Below are positions 21,323 to 31,807 of a DNA stretch of 64,000 nt, one piece after another. The stretch's first letter is position 1, and each line of letters opens with the position of its first letter. Made by a program: the position numbers and the translations under genes. This DNA comes from Dictyostelium discoideum (taxonomy: Eukaryota): the NCBI GenBank assembly GCA_000004695.1, contig CM000154.2, positions 1,344,001-1,408,000 of the forward strand. The letters run 5' to 3'. The notes beneath the pieces were generated by a model. It made no database searches and had not been told where the DNA came from. It saw nothing but the letters and a program-made list of their open reading frames with translations.

Positions 21323-24300
21323 ATGAATTGCTATTTAAACTTATTTTTTATAATTTTAATTATTTCCTTTGTAAATTGTTAGTTTTTTTTTTAAAAAAAA
21401 AAAAAAAAAATTATAAAAATTTTTAAATTGTAAACATTAATAACTAATTAAAAAAAATAAATAGGTGATGTTTCAATAAAATATTATAACGAACCAATAT
21501 CAGATGATTATATAGCAAATGTAAATGGCAATTGTTCTCAAAAAATCTGTTTCTTGGCCATTTCAAATAAAAATATTTCCGATATAAGTGCTTATGGAAT
21601 TCCTTTTACTTTATTACATGATCCATTTTTTGGACCAATTTCTTATGTTGAACTTTCAGTTTTTTCAAATACATCCTCGCCATCAACTATAATTACAATT
21701 GCAATTACAGAAAATGATGGAGCAATAACTCATTTTTTTAAAACAACCTATTGTTTGCGTATGTAATTTTTTACAAAAATAATATTAATTATATAATAAT
21801 AATAATATAATACTAAAAAAAAAAAAACATATATATATATATATAATTCTTAATAGTTCAAGAGACAACAAATTTCCAATTAGTTTTTAAAAATTCACCA
21901 TTTTTTTTAAATGAACCAATGTCAATAGATTCAGAATTTGGTACTAATAGTGGAGGTCCAAAAATGGTTGTACAGTTCATTGGTAATACACCTTCGGTTT
22001 TTAAAAAATTTTCAAGTAATTCATTATTCAACTCAACAGTTAAACTTTTAGGAAATAAAGCAACAAGTAGACTCTATGAAGTAACAATGTTTCCCATATC
22101 AATGCCAAGTATTAATTTTGAAAATCATAATCTTACTTATAAATATAATAGTGGTAGTGGAGAATTACAAACAACTTCATCATTTACACCAATATATTTT
22201 ACTGAATCTCACTATAATACATTTTTTCCTGCAATAAATTCAAAAAATAATATAATATATCAAGTTGATTTTCAATTCACAACTGATATCTATCCATATG
22301 GTTCAATGGTTTGTACTAATTGTTATATTTTCCTAGTTGCAAATAATGGATCCAGGGTGCAATTTCTTATTTATTTTAATAAAATTGGTTCTTACAATTC
22401 TACTGGTACATTTTCTAATGATGCACTCCATAACAATATGTATTTTACAAAAACTATTACAATTAAACCTGATAATTTTTCAAATGGTACAGAGATGACA
22501 TTGGTCTTCCAAGATACTGCATTTGGTACAACACCAATGGGGTTTTCAGCAATTTTAACTGGTGTTCCAGTATTACCAAATACACCAGTAACAATATATT
22601 ATCCAAGTGGCCTTAAAAGACAATTATGGTTTAATCAACCTCCATTCGGGTTAATAGATGGTTTTATGGTGGGTTTGGTCAATAAATTCAATGTCATGTT
22701 TACTATTAAACTATCAAAGTATATGAGTGGTACATTAAGATATAGTTTTAATTCAAACAATCAAAAATCACCAATAGAAATACCATTGCCAACTCAAATT
22801 GATCCACAGTTAATTGATACAGAATCACCAATAGTAACATCAGCTATTGTAGTAGGCGATATTGGTAAAATGAAATTAGTTATTCAAATGGCAATTACAG
22901 ATGATATTTCAGGTTTTTCAGCTTTTGTATGTTTAGATACAAATGAAATCATTTTCGATTATAAAAATTTAATGCTTGGAGGTACAATTAATAATGGTGT
23001 CTATAGCTTTATCTATGATTATGGTTTCACACCAGTTTGTAAAAATTCAGCATTTTTAGATTTCGCAGGTAATGCACAAGTTCAAAATCAACCATTCACT
23101 GATTTTATTAGATCATTTATAAATGCTACTACCAATATTAAATATTTAATGATGAATACACCAAGTTATCAAGCAAAAACATTATCAGATTTTCAAGAAT
23201 TTTATTTTGCATTTAATAATATCAGTTTAACAAATCAAGGTTTTTATAATACATTATATTTCAAATTCAAAGATAATAATAATGATCCAGATTATTGTAT
23301 TAAATTTAGATTAGCAATTTCAGGTGGATATCCAAATCCAATAGATTATTACTCAATATGGGATAATAATTTACAAATGTATAAAGTTGAATTTTATATT
23401 CCACCAAATCTATCAAAAATTAATATACTTTATTATATTTATTTAGGACTTGATTATGAAACTCAATATTCAACATCACATTTCCAATCATGGGTCAGTT
23501 CAAACAATGCAACATTATCAGTATACTCAAATATTGGTGATATGATGCCACCTTTGGTTCGTTCATTACTAATTAGCCCATCAACTGTGGATTCAGATAG
23601 CTTTTTAAATTATTATTTAATCATTGAAGATGTATACAATGGATTTGGTTATGGAGAAATTACAATTATGGGTTCAGTGGATTTTATACAATGGAATTTT
23701 ACATTTTCATCTGGTGAAAATAAAAATCCATTGGTTGATGTTTATAATTTTTCAATATATATTCCAAAGTGTATATCCCAATCCTACAATATCTATCATT
23801 TGAAATTAGTAGATAAAGCAGGAGTATTCTCAGAGTATACATTTGGTAAATCACAGCCTTTCCCAATCATCGATCCTTTGGTTAAAATAGTTGTTAATGA
23901 ATACAAATTCAATTGCTCAGTTAATCTTTATTCAAACTCTTTACCAGTTTTGAAAGATTTTACATTTGAACCATTATCAATAGATGTAGGTGGCCCAGAT
24001 TCATCAAGAACTGTTATATTTAAAATGGTGGTGGATGGTGCAGCCAAAGCAGGTTCAAAACCCACCATTTATTTAGGTGATACTTATATAAACTATGTAA
24101 CAGTACCAGTTTTATCAGATGGTGTATTTGATCCAATTGCAAATATCACAACATTTACAGTTTCAACAATTATTCCATATGGTTTTGGTTATCCAGAAGG
24201 TATTTTATTAAATGTATTTGGAATTCAAACTACATATTCCACATTTCAAGGTTATTCTTCACTGGATTTACGAGATGCTAATTTCACATATACACTTTTA

Positions 24301-25698
24301 ACTCCAACATTCTCTTCTTATCCAAAAATGACTTCATATTTACCAATTTCAGCCAATGGAGGAGAGTTAACTATTTTTGGAAGAGAATTATCAACAATAG
24401 CAAATTCATTTTATAGAATTATATATTCGGTAAATAGTAGTAATTCTACACCAGTGGCTTCAAATATTAATGTAAAATACATTTCTAATGTTGCAATTAA
24501 ATTAAATGTTTCTTCAACAACTGGTCCATTCACGATTGAATATACAACCTCATCAAAAACCATTGATACAATCACTATATATCCATATCATGATTATTGG
24601 AATCCAAACCCAGTAACACCAACACCAACCGAAACACCAACAGTACCACCTACTATAGCACCAACTGAAACACCAACAGTACCACCAACAAATCCACCAC
24701 AAAAATGTGGTGGTAATCCACAATGTGGTGGTGAGTCAAAAGGTAATTGTGTGAATGGAGTAGGTTGTGTTTGTATTTCACCATGGATTGGAAGTGAATG
24801 TCAATCAAGAATTATTACTATCCCACCACCAGTCATAGATCCAACAAATCCAAATCAAAATTTAACATTAAATTCAACAGGTACAAACGAATTCACATTG
24901 GTCAGTTTAGTATCATTAGTATCATTAAGAGAATTAAATTTTAAAAATGAATTAGTTAGATCATTCCGTTTCGATAAATGGAAATTAATATCAAACACTA
25001 CAACCGATAGTAATTATATAACAGATGTAATAGACCCAAAAAATAATAATACAATTTGTTCAGTTAATGTTTCAACTACTTGGTATCAAACAAAAACAGA
25101 TATCGAATTTGCAGGTCAAAAATTAACAATGAATCCAAGTACATTAAAATATAATATCAATATTACATCATTCCCATTCACATATGGATTGAATACACTT
25201 CAATTAGTAATGTCAGCAACAGCACAATCAACATCACAACAAGATGATCAATGTTCATCCAATGAATTTGGTGATACTACATCAAATGATAATTCAAATT
25301 ATCTTCAACTATCAGTCAATCAACATTCACTCTATGGTAGATTTATTAAAAGAGGTATTGTAGATAACAATATCAAATCAATTGGTAATGAAATTTTAAA
25401 AGATCTCTCAAGTGAAAACTCTTATTACATTTCACAATCATATATTGGTATAAATATTCCATTTTACAAAGAATCTGTTCAATTAGATCCAGATTTCTCA
25501 GTTTTATTAGATCAAAGATCAGCATCATCAATTTGTAATAATAAAGGAAATAAATTATCAAAAGGTGCTATCATTGGTATATCAATTGGGTGTGCTGCCT
25601 TCACTATCATTGTTGTAACTTTAGTTGCAATACTTTTAAAGAATAAATATTTCTTTAAAAGTGTTCAATTAAAAGTGATTAAAATGGTGGCAAAATAA
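21323..25698 (+). CDS. Tgr-like cell-surface glycoprotein A (signal peptide, IPT/TIG-like repeats, EGF-like module, single TM). Exons 21323..21377, 21465..21758, 21857..25698.
   Basis: Signal-peptide exon MNCYLNLFFIILIISFVN with donor GTTAGT. Exon 2 (C)DVSIKYYNEPISDDYIANVNGNC...KTTYCL with donor GTATGT at 21759. Acceptor cttaatag at 21856 leads into the long ORF. IPT-like motifs include FTFEPLSIDVGGPDSSRTVIFKM and SYLPISANGGELTIFGRELS. The EGF-like module is QKCGGNPQCGGESKGNCVNGVGCVCISPWIGSECQ. The TM segment is GAIIGISIGCAAFTIIVVTLVAILL, followed by a short tail. Many N-x-S/T sequons are present. Confidence 0.7.
24690..25665 (+). repeat. Near-identical 3' block of Tgr-like gene A. It is about 98% identical over about 0.9 kb to 29914..30889.
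   Basis: Direct comparison shows only scattered single-base differences from ccaccacaaaaatgtggtggtaatcc... through the TM region. The antisense ORFs 25373..25561 and 30597..30785 in the track are identical. Confidence 0.85.
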
Positions 25699-26519
25699 TA
25701 AATAAAACATTTCCACTTGTGTATTTATAAGTTATAAATAGATTTTTACAATATTTTAATTTTTTTTTTTTTTTAGAAAATAAAATTTTATTTGATATAG
25801 TCATTTATTTATTTATTTTTTTTTGTTTTTTTTAAAAGAATAATCTAAAACGATCTGGAAACAATTCTCTTTAAAGAATTTAGAGCGAAATTTGGAAACA
25901 ACAATAGTGTGGTGGGCAATCAATTTTTTATTAGTAATTTCTTTTTTTTTTTTTTTTTTTTAGTAAATGGGGGTTGTTTACCACTTTGAAACTATTTTTA
26001 ACTGATTTAAAATAATTTATTTAATATTTAATTTTCAATGTGTCCATAGTTAAAAATGCTCTTTAATTTATTTGTTTTACTTGTAATGGATGTGGATTAC
26101 AATAATTTTATAGACTATCATTTAATTTTAAAAAATCCTATAGTTCTTTTATTGTATCAGTTTCAAATAAAAAAAATAGATATTTATTTTAATTTTACCA
26201 GTATTAATATTTCAAAATCCCAAAAAAAACCGAAAGGCGTTTCTTTACATTTTTTAGTTGAATTTCAAAGAAAAAATTTTAATATGTTTTTTCAAATCAA
26301 ATTTATTATAATTATTGAAAAAAAAAAAAAAATTATTTAAAAATTATTTAAATCTATATTCCATGTACTTTTATTTTAAATAGGTTTATAAATAACCAAT
26401 AATAACAACAGTTATTAATATTAAATAAAAAATAAAAAATGAATTTTCATAAAAAAAAACGAAAAAAAATCTTTCCCGGCTCCTCTTTTTTTACACTATT
26501 AAATTCGCAACATATAAAT

Positions 26520-26554
<35 letters not shown>

Positions 26555-26560
26555 AAAAAA

Positions 26561-26664
26561 ATGATTAACATTAATATAAACAAAATATTTATTTTGATTT
26601 TCTTTATTATAACTTATATAAACATAATTAAGGGTAATTATAATAATAAAAATTCTGAAAATAG

Positions 26665-26698
<34 letters not shown>

Positions 26699-27095
26699 TT
26701 TTAATTAAAAATATTGCAAACAGGTGATATATCAATAAAGTATTATGATGAACCATTACCGGAAAATTTTGTTGCTGATTCAATTGGTAATTGTAAAGTA
26801 AAGTATTCTTTGTTTATAAAAAGCGATGTGCCAATAAAATCCATAGAAACTTCTCCAAGTGCCACAAATCCATTTGGTGAATTAAATAAATTAAATACCA
26901 CATTCTCGTTTCAAATAATATCAAATTTAGATTCGCCAAACTTTACACTCACAGTAATAATTATTGATAATAATTTAAAAGAATTTAGAGATTCAAGAAT
27001 AGTATATTGCGTTAGTAAGTTATAGTTTTAATATTATATTTTTCAATTTTTATTTTTACAATTATTCAATTTATCATTTCAATAAAATAATAAAA

Positions 27096-27133
<38 letters not shown>

Positions 27134-30100
27134 TTAGAATTAAATAATTATGGCCCAACAACAGAATATTTATTACAGACAAAGAAAAATAAAAGTAAAC
27201 TTTTTTTAAATGGTGTAATTAGTAAAAGTTCAAATACAGGAAAAGTAAGTGGGCCATTAATTGTTGTTGAATATATTAGTAATACACCACCACTTTTAGA
27301 ATCATTATACCCCAATCCATTTGATTTATTAATAAAACCATTAGGAAATAAAAAAACAAGTATATTGTATGAAATTTTATTTTTTACTTCAGCACCAAAC
27401 TATTTTTTCGACCAACTTGAAATATTTTATGCATGGGGTAGTTTTAAAATAGAACAAGCTCCCTCAACAAATCCCCAAATTATATTTTCCCAAATTTCTA
27501 TTTTTCCAACAGTTCAACCGAGTGCTAGTGCAATTGGGCTTTTTAGTTTAAAATTTAATGATTCTTCACAAGAAAGAACAATTAGAATTATCTCTGTAAA
27601 TTCTTATGTATATCCAGCTTTCAATGATGGTTTAAATGTAACATATCTTTGTTATTTTAATGAAAAAGGTAAATCAGATATTAATTTATCATACGGTATC
27701 CAATCTAAACCAATCTTTTCGGGTACTGTAAATATCCAAGCTGAAGATTACTCACAAGGCAAAGAAATGTTATTATTATTCAATGATCAATTAATGAATA
27801 TCACTCCAACAGCATTTACAGTAGTTTTAAGTGGAGTACCACTATTACCACAATATCCAATAAAATTAACATATCCAAGTGGTTTCGAGAGACAATTATG
27901 GCTCAACCAAAATCCATTTTCATTAAAGAATGGTTTTAGAAAAGATTCAATTGATACTTATGAAATAGTTTTCACTGCAAAGTTATCAAAATATTCAAGA
28001 GGTTCACATATTTTAAAATATAATTCAACAAATTACCTTACTTTCGAAGCTACACCTAAACCAGAATTAATTGTTGATAGTAGTCCACCAGACATAATAA
28101 TGGTTCGATCTTTTAATATTGGTAGAATGAAAATAGACATTCAAATTTCAATTATTGATGATATTTCAGGTTTTTCAGCTTTTGTATGTTTAGATACCAA
28201 TGAAATCATTTTCGATTATAAAAATTTAAAAATAGGTGGCACAATAAATAATGGTGTTTATAGTTTTATTTATGATTATGGTTTCACACCAGTTTGTAAA
28301 AAATCAGCATTTTTAGATTTCGCAGGCAATGCATTAGTACAAAATCAATCATTTGTGGATTTAATAGTTTCAAATGGAATGTTTAACTATTTTTCAATTG
28401 ACCTTCCAATTACAAAACCAAAAACATTATCAGATTTTGATCAATTTTATTTTGCATTCAATAATATCAATTTAACAAACCAAGGTTTTTACAATACATT
28501 ATTTTTTAAATTTAAAGATAATGATAATGATCCAGACTATTGTATTAAATTTAGATTGGCAATTTCAGAAGGTTGGCCAAATCCAGTGGATAGTTTTTCA
28601 ACATGGGATTACAATTTGCAAATGTATAGAGTTGACTTTTTTTTACCGTCAAACTTATTAAATATGGATATACTTTATTATATTTATTTAGGACTTGATT
28701 ATGAAACTCAATATTCAACATCACACTTCCAATCATGGGTCAGTTCAAACAATGCAACATTATCAGTATACTCAAATAATGGAGATATAATGCCACCTAT
28801 GGTTCATTATTTAGATTGGCTCATAACTGATATGCTAAACTATTCAATACAAAGGAATTTAATATGGATGTTTAATATTGAAGACCAATATAATGGTTTT
28901 GATATGGGTGAGCTTACAATTATGGGTTCAGTAGATTTTATACCATGGAACTTTAAATTTTCATCAAATAATAAGAATCCACTATCAGATTATTATAACT
29001 TTACAATTTCTATTCCTCAAAATTCAAGAACTCAAACCTATTATATCACTCATTTGAAATTAGTTGATAAAAATGGAATATTTTCTGAATATAATATTAG
29101 TAAACCACAAGTTTTCCCAAACGTTGATCCATTAATTAAAATGCCCTCTCGATCATTTAAAGTTCTTGGTGATGATGATAATCCTATTTCAAGTACACTT
29201 CCAACATTGGTTGATTTCATTATAACACCAAGTTTAATCGATGTCGGAGGTTCAGATATTTCAAGAAATGTTATATTCACTATTAAAACCCAAGATGTGG
29301 TTGGAATTAGACAAGATGTAAAACCAACCATTTATTTAGGTGATACCTATTTAAATTATATACCAGTACCAGTTACATCAGATGGTGTTTTAGATCCAAT
29401 TACAGGTGTCACGACATTTACGGTTTCAACAACTATTCCATATGGTTTTGGTTACCCAGAAGGTATTTTATTAAATGTATTTGGAATTAAAAGCTCACAT
29501 TCTACATTTCAAGGTTATTCATCATTTGATTTACGTGATGCTTTTTTTAGCTATTCAATCACTACTTCAACTTTCTCAGTAGGTACGAAATTATTATCCT
29601 ATTCACCAATTTCAAACAAAGGTGGTCAATTTACAATTTTTGGAAGATCATTAGATGCCATAGAGAATCCTTCTTACTATATTACTTTAAACTCTCAAAC
29701 AAATGTATCAAAAATAATTCCAGACATTCAATTTATTTCAATTAGTAGTTCAGCAGTTATAATTACAGCAGTTCCTTCTAATTCTTCATTTTCAGTATTT
29801 TTAGTAGATTCCTCAAGTAATAATATAATTGATTCAATTATTATTAATCCATATTATGATTATTGGGTATCCAATCCGATAAAACCAACTGAAACACCAA
29901 TAGTATTACCTACAAATCCACCACAAAAATGTGGTGGTAATCCACAATGTGGTGGTGAATCAAAAGGTAAATGTGTGAATGGAGTAGGTTGTGTTTGTAT
30001 TTCACCATGGATTGGAAGTGAATGTCAATCAAGAATTATTACTATCCCACCACCAATCATAGACCCAAAAAATCCAAATCAAAATTTAACATTAAATTCA

Positions 30101-30931
30101 ACAGGTACAAATGAATTCACATTGGTCAGTTTAGTATCATTAGTTTCATTAAGAGAATTAAATTTTAAAAATGAATTAGTTAGATCATTCCGTTTCGATA
30201 AATGGAAATTAATATCAAACACTACAACCGATAGTAATTATATAACAGATGTAATAGACCCAAAAAATAATAATACAATATGTTCAGTTAATGTTTCAAC
30301 TACTTGGTATCAAACAAAAACAGATATCGAATTTGCAGGTCAAAAATTAACAATGAATCCTAGTACATTAAAATATAATATCAACATTACATCATTCCCA
30401 TTCACATATGGATTGAATACACTTCAATTAGTAATGTCAGCAACAGCACAATCAACATCACAACAAGATGATCAATGTTCATCCAATGAATTTGGTGATA
30501 CTACATCAAATGATAATTCAAATTATCTTCAACTATCAGTCAATCAACATTCACTCTATGGTAGATTTATTAAAAGAGGTATTGTAGATAACAATATCAA
30601 ATCAATTGGTAATGAAATTTTAAAAGATCTCTCAAGTGAAAACTCTTATTACATTTCACAATCATATATTGGTATAAATATTCCATTTTACAAAGAATCT
30701 GTTCAATTAGATCCAGATTTCTCAGTTTTATTAGATCAAAGATCAGCATCATCAATTTGTAATAATAAAGGAAATAAATTATCAAAAGGTGCTATCATTG
30801 GTATATCAATTGGGTGTGCTGCATTTACTGTTGTTGCTGTAACTCTACTTGTAATTTTATTAAAGAATAAATATTTCTTTAAAAGTATTCAATTAAAAGC
30901 TATAGAATTAGTAGAAACAAAAAATAAATAA
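26561..30931 (+). CDS. Tgr-like cell-surface glycoprotein B, tandem paralogue of A. Exons 26561..26633, 26724..27014, 27138..30931.
   Basis: Same three-exon architecture and phases as gene A (MINININKIFILIFFIITYINIIKG | GDISIKYYDEPLPENF...RIVYCV | KLNNYGPTTEYLL...). The N-terminal two-thirds is diverged. Mosaic blocks and the C-terminal about 330 aa are near-identical to A. Confidence 0.7.
29914..30889 (+). repeat. Near-identical 3' block of Tgr-like gene B, partner of 24690..25665
   Basis: See partner feature. Confidence 0.85.
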
Positions 30932-31028: not shown

Positions 31029-31807
31029 TTATTCTTTTATTTCATTTTTTTCTTTTTTGTGTAATTTTGAGAAAAATGAATGTTTTTTCTCTTTTTTCTC
31101 CTTTTTATTATCACCAAGCTCTTCATTTTCATTTGATATATTATTTTCTTTTGCAAGATTTGGTTGGTTATTTGATTTATAATCGTTTTGTTGATAGTTG
31201 TCATATGCTTGTTTATTTAATTGTACTGGCGGTTGATTATAATTATAGTCCATGTATCCTGGTTGTTGTTGTTGTGGCTGTTGTTGATATTGATTTGGGT
31301 ATTGATCTTGTCTTTGTAAATATTCAGGTGGTACTTGAGCCATTGGGGCGTCATATTTTCCTTTTTTATGATTTTTTTCATTATTTTCAGCTTCAAATTT
31401 AACATCGTCAGGATTATTAAAAGTAGGCATAGTTTCTTTTTCATAATATGGAATTGTTGCACCACAAGACGGACAATGTAAAAACATATTACCATTTTTT
31501 ACTTTAAAGAATGGAATAAAAAATAAGTGAAACCACTCATCATTTTTTACTAATTGAACTCCACTATTTTTACAATTAACACACTTTTTTTTTTTTTTTT
31601 TTTTAAAGTTTTAGTTATTTTAAATTATAATATTATTATTACGAAAAAAGTAAATTATAGTTACAATTCTTTTCTTGTTATCAATTAATTTCGACTTTCC
31701 TCTAAGTCCAAATGGAATAATTATTGGAATCCACTGTAATAAAACTAATGATTAATAAATTAAATTTTAATAAACAAATAAAAATAATAAAATTTTAAGT
31801 TTACCAT
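31029..31807 (-). CDS. LITAF-like zinc-ribbon membrane-hairpin protein with a Q/N-rich tail. Proposed exons 31805..31807 (ATG only), 31665..31733, 31029..31583.
   Basis: ORF 31029..31487 extends upstream to an acceptor at 31584 and gives CVNCKNSGVQLVKNDEWFHLFFIPFFKVKNGNMFLHCPSCGATIPYYE. This is a CxxC ... hydrophobic ... HCPxC arrangement as in the LITAF/SIMPLE-like domain. An upstream exon WIPIIIPFGLRGKSKLIDNKKRI has donor GTAACT and is preceded by acceptor ttattacag. The only upstream ATG is aaaaaaaaaATG|GTAAAC at 31805-31807, which would make exon 1 the start codon alone. Confidence 0.45.

Follow-up and report, generated by a model that had tools for sequence, protein, structure and literature searches.

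Tandem ComC-like genes of Dictyostelium discoideum with diverged ectodomains and a membrane-proximal module probably homogenised by gene conversion

Conversion of one region of tandem surface-protein genes is known from the clustered protocadherins. In fugu, zebrafish, and human, the 3′ membrane-proximal part of their variable exons is homogenised among neighbours, to >99% in fugu (PMC1852091). Among dictyostelid proteins, the Tgr family is defined by IPT/TIG or immunoglobulin (Ig) E-set repeats (IPR002909 / PF01833), and the genes of TgrB1 and TgrC1, which lie head-to-head and use one promoter, show extraordinary polymorphism (bioRxiv 10.1101/2025.10.22.684067). ComC is a protein with a signal peptide, a transmembrane segment, and EGF domains, and its mutant shows aberrant aggregation (PMC4931340, PMC2873529). 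Here, we analyse two neighbouring genes, DDB_G0288301 (gene A) and DDB_G0288317 (gene B), in a 64-kb stretch of D. discoideum AX4 (the window; GC ~22%). The initial annotation of this DNA assigned the pair to the Tgr family and proposed that recent or ongoing gene conversion homogenises their membrane-proximal region. The results support membership of both proteins in the dictyostelid ComC-like family of type I membrane glycoproteins. The likeness to ComC itself is by domain architecture, not by direct alignment, and A and B are uncharacterised paralogues.

Genes A and B both lie on the + strand, head-to-tail, with 862 bp between them, and encode proteins that are 62% identical overall. In the global DNA alignment, the two genes are 40-65% identical over the 5′ half, show patches of 83-91% mid-gene, and are 97-100% identical over 24655-~25600 versus 29879-~30825. 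At the protein level, identity is ~33% over residues 1-440, ~75% over residues 441-700, ~55% over residues 701-1050, and 97-100% in the tail. The initial annotation had described highly diverged N-terminal halves and a near-identical 3′ end of ~0.9 kb, synonymous sites included, and these observations hold. Over the intervals that it compared, 24690-25665 and 29914-30889, 23 of 976 positions differ (97.6% identity), and a sharper tract has 10 mismatches in 911 positions (Table 1). The tract holds a perfect run of 437 bp (25162-25598), whereas the longest identical run in 2000 column shuffles is 51. The number of synonymous substitutions per synonymous site (dS; Nei-Gojobori) between A and B is 0.93 over residues 1-440, 0.44 over residues 441-700, and 0.74 over residues 701-1050, and collapses to 0.038 in the tail; it is thus far from uniform along the genes. 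Where A and B encode the same residue, the codons differ at 10 of 298 sites in the tail, compared with 112 of 472 sites in the body (Fisher p = 3e-16).

The tract runs from the end of a Pro/Thr linker through an EGF-like module, the ComC supersandwich, and the juxtamembrane segment into the transmembrane helix, of which it covers the first half. Its 5′ edge falls in the linker, where gene A carries a 42-nucleotide (nt) insertion (24613-24654) that is not in B. The linker of A is disordered in the AlphaFold2 (AF2) model (model residues 106-146). The 3′ edge in AX4 is abrupt and lies inside the transmembrane codons, with 12 mismatches over the following 37 bp. A search for a closer tail donor elsewhere in AX4 found none, the best other tail, that of DDB_G0281459, being 53% identical.

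We took the syntenic locus from six further assemblies: D. citrinum, D. firmibasis, two D. cf. discoideum, and two labelled D. discoideum, for which flanking-gene dS against AX4 is ~0.03-0.075. Within each genome, the tails of A and B are 96.6-99.3% identical, whereas A-versus-A tails between species are 88-90% identical. The dS of orthologous tails is 0.30-0.33 between AX4 and D. citrinum and 0.39-0.41 between AX4 and D. firmibasis, near the value of 0.43-0.44 for orthologues of the adjacent gene pdx1. In a neighbour-joining tree of the tails, the two copies of a genome form their own clade with 100% bootstrap in AX4, one D. cf. discoideum, D. citrinum, and D. firmibasis, and with 79% in the second D. 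cf. discoideum strain; groupings of all A or all B tails receive 0%. In sliding windows over the tail, the nearest neighbour of each copy is its own paralogue, and upstream of the tract orthologues are always nearer than paralogues. The 3′ edge of the tract varies, from inside the transmembrane helix in AX4 to the stop codon in D. firmibasis and one D. cf. discoideum. This grouping of tails by genome, in AX4 and the other assemblies, strongly supports the proposal that the near-identical tail reflects ongoing regional gene conversion, a reading that we regard as well founded.

Because the tail drifts about neutrally between species and is homogenised within genomes, constraint, a single old swap, and assembly collapse are excluded. 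Very strong purifying selection, acting on the tail as protein or as RNA, would agree with the tail being the most constrained part of the protein (the ratio of non-synonymous to synonymous rates, dN/dS, is 0.10-0.25). However, tail dS between species is 0.30-0.41, near that of pdx1, and copies within a genome differ by only ~0.04. A single swap of tails, if ancestral, predicts two orthologous tail clades; instead, in four lineages the tails of each genome form one group at 100% bootstrap. The chance that either selection or one recent swap explains the tail is negligible. That two repeats were collapsed, a caveat of the initial annotation, or wrongly joined in the AX4 reference is likewise extremely improbable. 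AT-rich repeats are generally hard to assemble, and nothing further speaks in favour of an artefact; on the other side, 10 fixed differences and distinct flanks tell the AX4 copies apart, the same mosaic recurs in the six further assemblies, five of them nanopore plus Illumina (PMC12745789), and the B protein predicted from an independent D. discoideum assembly is identical.

The pattern recurs in other dictyostelids. Many gene models of the family are fused tandem neighbours, and nine pairs were split at a DPDF motif. Six pairs with diverged bodies, from Tieghemostelium lacteum, Heterostelium album, and Polysphondylium violaceum, are 76-99% identical over the last ~300 residues and 17-79% (mostly 25-55%) identical over the rest. 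For one T. lacteum pair, dS is 1.22 in the body and 0.05-0.07 in the tail. The T. lacteum tract starts exactly at the first EGF-like cysteines, after the Pro/Thr linker, and ends ~90-150 nt before the stop codon. In H. album (L009 3001-21576), three tandem ComC-like genes and one inverted gene share a tail of ~1 kb with 88.6-91% nucleotide identity. Since the inverted gene shares the tail, homogenisation also operates between convergent neighbours. Independent tandem pairs thus have the same module homogenised, with the same edges.

Repeated unequal crossing-over, with cycles of duplication and deletion, might keep tails alike as well. Two strains carry A-B1-B2 arrays (L003 22330-24448; L007 10827-15190), and in the one strain examined the 3′ flank of B1 resembles the A flank for ~120 bp, which fits an unequal crossover inside the tails. 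However, a single crossover in the tail would swap everything downstream or alter copy number. The AX4 tract has two internal edges, the 3′ one abrupt in the transmembrane codons, every genome keeps orthologous flanks and gene bodies in an unchanged order, and homogenising the inverted H. album neighbour by this route would need a rearrangement. As the cause of tail identity, unequal crossing-over is therefore very unlikely. It probably contributes to copy number and not to homogenisation itself.

We consider it very probable that A and B are tandem ComC-like paralogues with separate bodies, whose tail has been repeatedly overwritten by interlocus gene conversion. The A/B duplication would be older than the divergence of D. 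discoideum, D. citrinum, and D. firmibasis, and each ectodomain body would since have followed its own orthologous lineage, with the N-terminus changing fastest. Non-reciprocal interlocus conversion between the neighbours would have overwritten, again and again, a module of ~0.9-1.0 kb that reaches from the EGF-like module across the supersandwich and the juxtamembrane segment to the middle of the transmembrane helix. The copies of this module remain ~97-99% identical per genome and drift between species at about the neutral synonymous rate, with a 5′ edge at the indel-prone low-complexity linker and a 3′ edge in or after the transmembrane codons. The data show the two genes, their domains, the tract, and its concerted evolution, in seven genomes as well as in unrelated tandem pairs. 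The homogeneous tail may also be a substrate for unequal crossing-over that makes extra B copies. The tract may persist through a self-sustaining effect, high identity favouring further conversion, or through a need for neighbouring proteins to have a membrane-proximal module in common. Such a module would serve a common partner or cis-association while the heads diversify in ligand specificity.

Several points weigh against this account. Conversion is deduced from sequence comparison, and no event has been directly observed. In the two assemblies labelled D. discoideum, the tails are incompletely sorted, and one of them has 32 A-B mismatches, about the between-strain distance; conversion is therefore episodic and not continuous. 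A signature of GC-biased conversion is absent: GC at third codon positions (GC3) is 0.125 and 0.115 in the two tails versus 0.141 and 0.140 in the bodies. The missing rise is weak evidence in a genome of ~22% GC. A role of the proteins in cell-cell adhesion or signalling is entirely inferred. The match of the supersandwich to the luminal domain of GLMP, discussed below, is at the fold level only, with 7-8% identity and a modest template-modelling score (TM-score) of 0.43-0.45.

The sequence motifs quoted in the initial annotation and its two shorter identical blocks inside the genes are present, but in AX4 the blocks do not look like recent conversion. They are 88-94% identical at the nucleotide level, and since paralogues are no closer than orthologues there, they look like conserved domain cores. 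One of the mid-gene domains, DUF7743, is 88-90% identical between A and B in nucleotides. A patch of it (22869-23109) shows a conversion signature, with the paralogue nearest, only in D. firmibasis and D. citrinum.

Gene models were obtained by testing all GT-AG combinations that keep the frame open (Table 1). Both genes have the three-exon design described in the initial annotation, with a signal-peptide micro-exon, an exon of ~97 codons, and a giant exon, exon 2 having 98 codons in A and 97 in B. The tandem paralogues stand as described as well; their proteins are ~1390 residues long and not ~1300. The products of the window match AX4 proteins exactly or nearly. Exon 3 of gene A is 99% identical to DDB_G0288301 (P0001), and the exon-1 peptide of A is conserved at the start of every orthologue annotation. 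The spliced product of gene B is identical to KAM9947198.1 of an independent D. discoideum annotation and clusters with DDB_G0288317. In the AX4 reference, DDB_G0288301 has an upstream first exon (~20968-21036) with the protein start MIGIVILSLILF, and DDB_G0288317 is a protein of 1364 residues starting MLFNLFVLL.... These first exons differ from all orthologue annotations, which start MNCxLKLFFIILIISFVNC and MINININKIFILIFF and match the first exons modelled here. The reference calls of exon 1 of both genes are probably wrong and need correcting.

The domain order is signal peptide, variable beta-rich head, DUF7743, DUF7035, DUF7034, IPT-like sandwich, Pro/Thr linker, EGF-like DUF7949 module, ComC supersandwich, transmembrane helix, and short tail, the latter being a cytoplasmic tail of ~17 residues in A. 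Both proteins have an N-terminal hydrophobic signal, one transmembrane helix, and 22-27 N-x-S/T sequons, as the initial annotation's type I membrane glycoproteins should. The first ~430 residues of A and B have no counterpart in most family members. Over head residues 118-435, A and B are 19-48% identical. A structure model of residues 118-560 has a mean predicted local distance difference test (pLDDT) of 64; only DUF7743 is confident, and residues 118-435 lie at ~40-70. A Foldseek search with this model returned only strings of generic Ig-like domains (TM-score 0.17-0.35), and the model suggests nothing about the head fold beyond all-beta.

The AF2 model of residues 925-1396 of A (pLDDT 75) shows, in order, a beta-sandwich, the disordered linker, the Cys-rich module, the supersandwich, and the transmembrane helix. 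The beta-sandwich (model residues 13-105, pLDDT 73-89) matches the IPT/TIG domains of EBF3 (3muj, 3n50) and TonEBP in a Foldseek search of the PDB with probability 1.0, E values of 0.02-0.03, and TM-scores of ~0.4-0.5. The EGF-like module of A, with the motif CVCISPWIGSEC, has 35 residues and six cysteines and ends in C-x-C-x8-C; in relatives, EGF_2 and EGF_TEN matches overlap DUF7949. The supersandwich is modelled with pLDDT ~85-95, and its ComC_SSD match covers profile positions 8-222 of 222 in A (60.6 bits versus a cut-off of 24) and nearly the full profile in B (58.6 bits versus the same cut-off). Foldseek matches it to the GLMP luminal domain and to galactose-mutarotase-like supersandwiches, the former being the best solved-structure match (6nyq_C, 8r8q_B, E ~1e-5). 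Like A and B, GLMP is a glycosylated type I membrane protein with a single transmembrane helix after the matched domain. The 8r8q entry is described as a lysosomal peptide transporter, the GLMP chain being part of the entry. We found no evidence that A or B pairs with a transporter, and the predicted resemblance to GLMP is a lead and not a finding.

Table 1 Features of the ComC-like pair and its neighbours, in window coordinates
Feature	Position	Strand	Basis or remark
Gene A (DDB_G0288301, UniProt Q54J46)	21323-21377, 21465-21758, 21857-25698	+	1396 aa (amino acids)
Gene A exon 1, signal peptide MNCYLNLFFIILIISFVNC	21323..21377	+	sole splice model yielding open frame
Gene A exon 2, 98 codons	21465..21758	+	tblastn to orthologues
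Gene A exon 3, giant exon including stop	21857..25698	+	open frame 21847-25695
Gene B (DDB_G0288317, UniProt Q54J45)	26561-26633, 26724-27014, 27138-30931	+	1385 aa
Gene B exon 1, signal peptide	26561..26633	+	splice model
Gene B exon 2, 97 codons	26724..27014	+	splice model and annotation match
Gene B exon 3, giant exon including stop	27138..30931	+	open frame and annotation match
Fast-evolving N-terminal ectodomain of A, exon 3 part, aa 118-435	21859..22812	+	all-beta; no Pfam family
DUF7743 of A, aa ~436-533, including conserved block ISGFSAFVCLDTNEIIFDYKNL	22813..23127	+	Pfam E = 1.8e-11 (scanned alone)
DUF7743 of B, aa 433-533	28070..28372	+	Pfam E = 2.4e-10
DUF7035 (aa 677-805) and DUF7034 (aa 813-932) of A	23536..24303	+	Pfam E = 1e-26, 1.5e-19
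DUF7035 (aa 670-792) and DUF7034 (aa 810-933) of B	28781..29572	+	Pfam E = 1.2e-28, 2.2e-25
IPT/TIG-like beta-sandwich of A, aa 937-1029, contains PISANGGELTIFG	24316..24594	+	fold only
Pro/Thr-rich low-complexity linker of A; 5′ edge of tract	24595..24705	+	
Putative conversion tract, gene A copy, aa 1061-1364	24688..25598	+	10/911 mismatches to B
Putative conversion tract, gene B copy	29912..30822	+	alignment, trees
Cys-rich EGF-like module of A (DUF7949, aa 1067-1102)	24706..24813	+	Pfam E = 6.5e-11
ComC supersandwich of A (PF22933, aa 1121-1333)	24868..25506	+	Pfam E = 2.2e-16
DUF7949 (aa 1053-1088) and ComC supersandwich (aa 1108-1319) of B	29930..30730	+	Pfam E = 2.2e-11, 9.3e-16
Transmembrane helix of A, aa ~1352-1379	25561..25644	+	hydropathy; AF2 helix, model residues 428-471
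Small gene downstream of B, orthologues with Zn_ribbon_15	31029-31487	-	
Large gene, ~1630 aa	32942-37956	-	no Pfam match

A HMMER (phmmer) scan of 1.84 billion representatives returns 757 family members at E <= 1e-3 and 365 at E <= 1e-30, most of them 1300-1400 residues long. Among the representatives looked up, 18 have an organism name, and each of these is from a dictyostelid; their entries read 'EGF-like domain-containing protein' or 'hypothetical protein' in 17 cases and give just a gene-model identifier in the last. DUF7035, DUF7034, and ComC_SSD are present in 20 of 20 full-length relatives, DUF7949 in 19 of the 20, and DUF7743 in 15 of 22 alignment members. A and B have the full domain architecture of this family at curated Pfam thresholds; a signal peptide, one transmembrane helix, and occurrence in dictyostelids only are further shared features. 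The profile searches proposed in the initial annotation, for Pfam TIG and EGF, match neither family in A or B, an outcome that it had named as a refutation and that the Tgr assignment does not survive; what they match is DUF7743, DUF7035, DUF7034, DUF7949, and ComC_SSD. In particular, Pfam TIG (PF01833) is not found at E <= 1 on full A and B, at E <= 10 on the isolated residues 930-1040, or at E <= 0.01 in the 20 full-length relatives. The EGF-like module thus stands as a six-cysteine pattern and not as a Pfam EGF match, and of the IPT/TIG-like sandwiches one domain remains, at the fold level. Shorter ComC_SSD proteins (P0015, P0025) carry a true Pfam TIG domain directly before DUF7949, so the recipe of IPT-like sandwich, EGF-like module, and transmembrane helix is that of the ComC-like family. 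Judging from the model, the fold in A denotes an IPT-like module rather than Tgr membership.

The Tgr family resembles the pair in that its members are dictyostelid type I membrane proteins with beta-sandwich domains, a signal peptide, and a single transmembrane helix, and differs in its IPT/TIG or Ig E-set repeats, none of which profile searches reveal in A and B. To our knowledge, Tgr proteins have neither an EGF-like module nor a ComC supersandwich. Members of both families are clustered in the genome, and the clusters undergo birth and death, vary in copy number, and bear traces of interlocus conversion. The Ig_TgrO1 profile reaches only a sub-threshold match on the isolated region (E = 0.074; 13.7 bits versus a cut-off of 27.9). 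The sources name A and B 'hypothetical protein' or 'EGF-like domain-containing protein'; judging by these names, neither is among the 63 AX4 tgr genes.

Between orthologues, pairwise dN/dS (Nei-Gojobori) is 0.52-1.06 in the head, 0.26-0.60 in the middle, 0.10-0.25 in the tail, and 0.00-0.03 in pdx1. The N-terminal heads evolve fast; positive selection is not demonstrated. For B1 versus B2, head dN/dS is 1.78 on ~20 non-synonymous and 3 synonymous changes (estimated from rates), too few for significance. Ectodomain dS between AX4 and the two assemblies labelled D. discoideum is 0.05-0.11, compared with 0.064-0.075 for pdx1 and 0.034 for Frag1. Between these two assemblies, ectodomain dS is 0.03-0.08 versus 0.01 for pdx1 (very few sites). 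Ectodomain dS mostly matches that of the flanking genes, and there is no clear sign of a consistent excess among the three D. discoideum-level lineages, a comparison of low power. The elevated polymorphism across isolates for which the initial annotation had suggested looking is not seen as an extreme excess in this small sample.

These data bear on the further proposal that the pair is a polymorphic self/non-self pair of the Tgr family like TgrB1/TgrC1, in which conversion keeps the stalk constant and selection diversifies the ectodomain. The type I topology with beta-sandwich domains, the TgrO1-like Ig match, the fast N-terminal ectodomain (dN/dS 0.5-1.06), the copy number that differs among strains, and the interlocus conversion reported within the tgrB cluster (bioRxiv 10.1101/2025.10.22.684067) are all in line with it. 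However, TIG is absent from A, B, and the full-length relatives, the defining profile matches are those of the ComC-like architecture, and the sources do not name the genes tgr. The genes lie head-to-tail and not head-to-head with a shared promoter, unlike those of TgrB1/TgrC1; ectodomain dS (0.05-0.11 versus 0.03-0.075 for the flanks) shows no excess of the kind left by balancing selection; and gene B, frameshifted and partly inverted in one lineage, is an apparent pseudogene there. The allorecognition proposal is unsupported, and we regard it as highly improbable.

Regional conversion in the clustered protocadherins is the process-level parallel that the ComC-like tail resembles most closely. 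Both are tandem genes of single-pass surface proteins with a homogenised membrane-proximal part and a divergent distal ectodomain, and in both cases synonymous sites served to exclude constraint (PMC1852091). They differ in that protocadherins have an unrelated protein fold, belong to another kingdom, and have a different biology; their tracts show raised GC3, their constant exons are shared by splicing, which is not seen for A and B, and the ComC-like arrays here are small (2-4 copies).

That both genes are annotated, though uncharacterised, and that regional conversion occurs between tandem receptor genes was known already. A literature search found no paper on DDB_G0288301 or DDB_G0288317 and no expression or mutant data. 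What appears to be new, in the literature searched, is the family-wide, domain-delimited recurrence in distantly related dictyostelid genera. For the ComC-like family, trees, orthology calls, and short-read mapping would mislead unless the last ~1 kb is excluded. The membrane-proximal supersandwich is the part that neighbours share, which makes it a sensible place to seek a common partner, and the fast-evolving heads are candidates for ligand specificity. The family's sole studied member, comC, affects aggregation and reportedly acts upstream of lagC and lagD. A speculative and rather unlikely extension is that the ComC-like family presents variable heads on a locally shared constant stalk, conversion keeping the stalk for a common partner or cis-association and the heads forming a combinatorial code. 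If so, the code would serve adhesion or recognition in aggregative multicellularity, protocadherin-like, independently of animals and separately from Tgr.

Gene B varies in structure among genomes. In one D. cf. discoideum strain (L002 16039-20350), frameshifts distribute it over several reading frames, and 868 bp of its tail (19483-20350) form a precise inversion. No convincing inverted repeats, and no long ones, were found at the junctions of this inversion. Gene B is apparently a pseudogene in this strain; alternatively, the assembly or its polishing is at fault. In the L002 annotation, the inverted piece and the adjacent Zn_ribbon_15 gene form one fused model. In the A-B1-B2 arrays, automatic annotation fuses B1 and B2 into proteins of ~2750 residues. 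The D. firmibasis model P0006 (1902 residues; L005 10001-12890) looks like a fusion of an upstream Cys-/Thr-rich gene with the gene B orthologue, its first ~530 residues being unrelated to the ComC-like family.

A minus-strand gene of ~300 codons lies between A and B in D. citrinum and both D. cf. discoideum strains (L001 14607-15626, L002 14464-15483, L003 14576-15635), with no Pfam match on record. AX4 and the L004 assembly lack ~1.1 kb at this site, and a 230-bp remnant in AX4 (25699-25929) adjoins the stop codon of A. Downstream of B, the Zn_ribbon_15-type gene and the ~1630-residue gene are syntenic in all genomes examined. Elsewhere in the window, no further family members and no tRNA genes were found. 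A perfect 234-bp direct repeat (38606-38839 and 39201-39434), its copies 595 bp apart, lies in AT-rich intergenic DNA (GC ~15%) and has no tRNA and no obvious coding content. Unrelated to the pair, an open reading frame of 1620 codons on the minus strand (3341-8203) is full of 9-15-nt periodic repeats and encodes a low-complexity protein.

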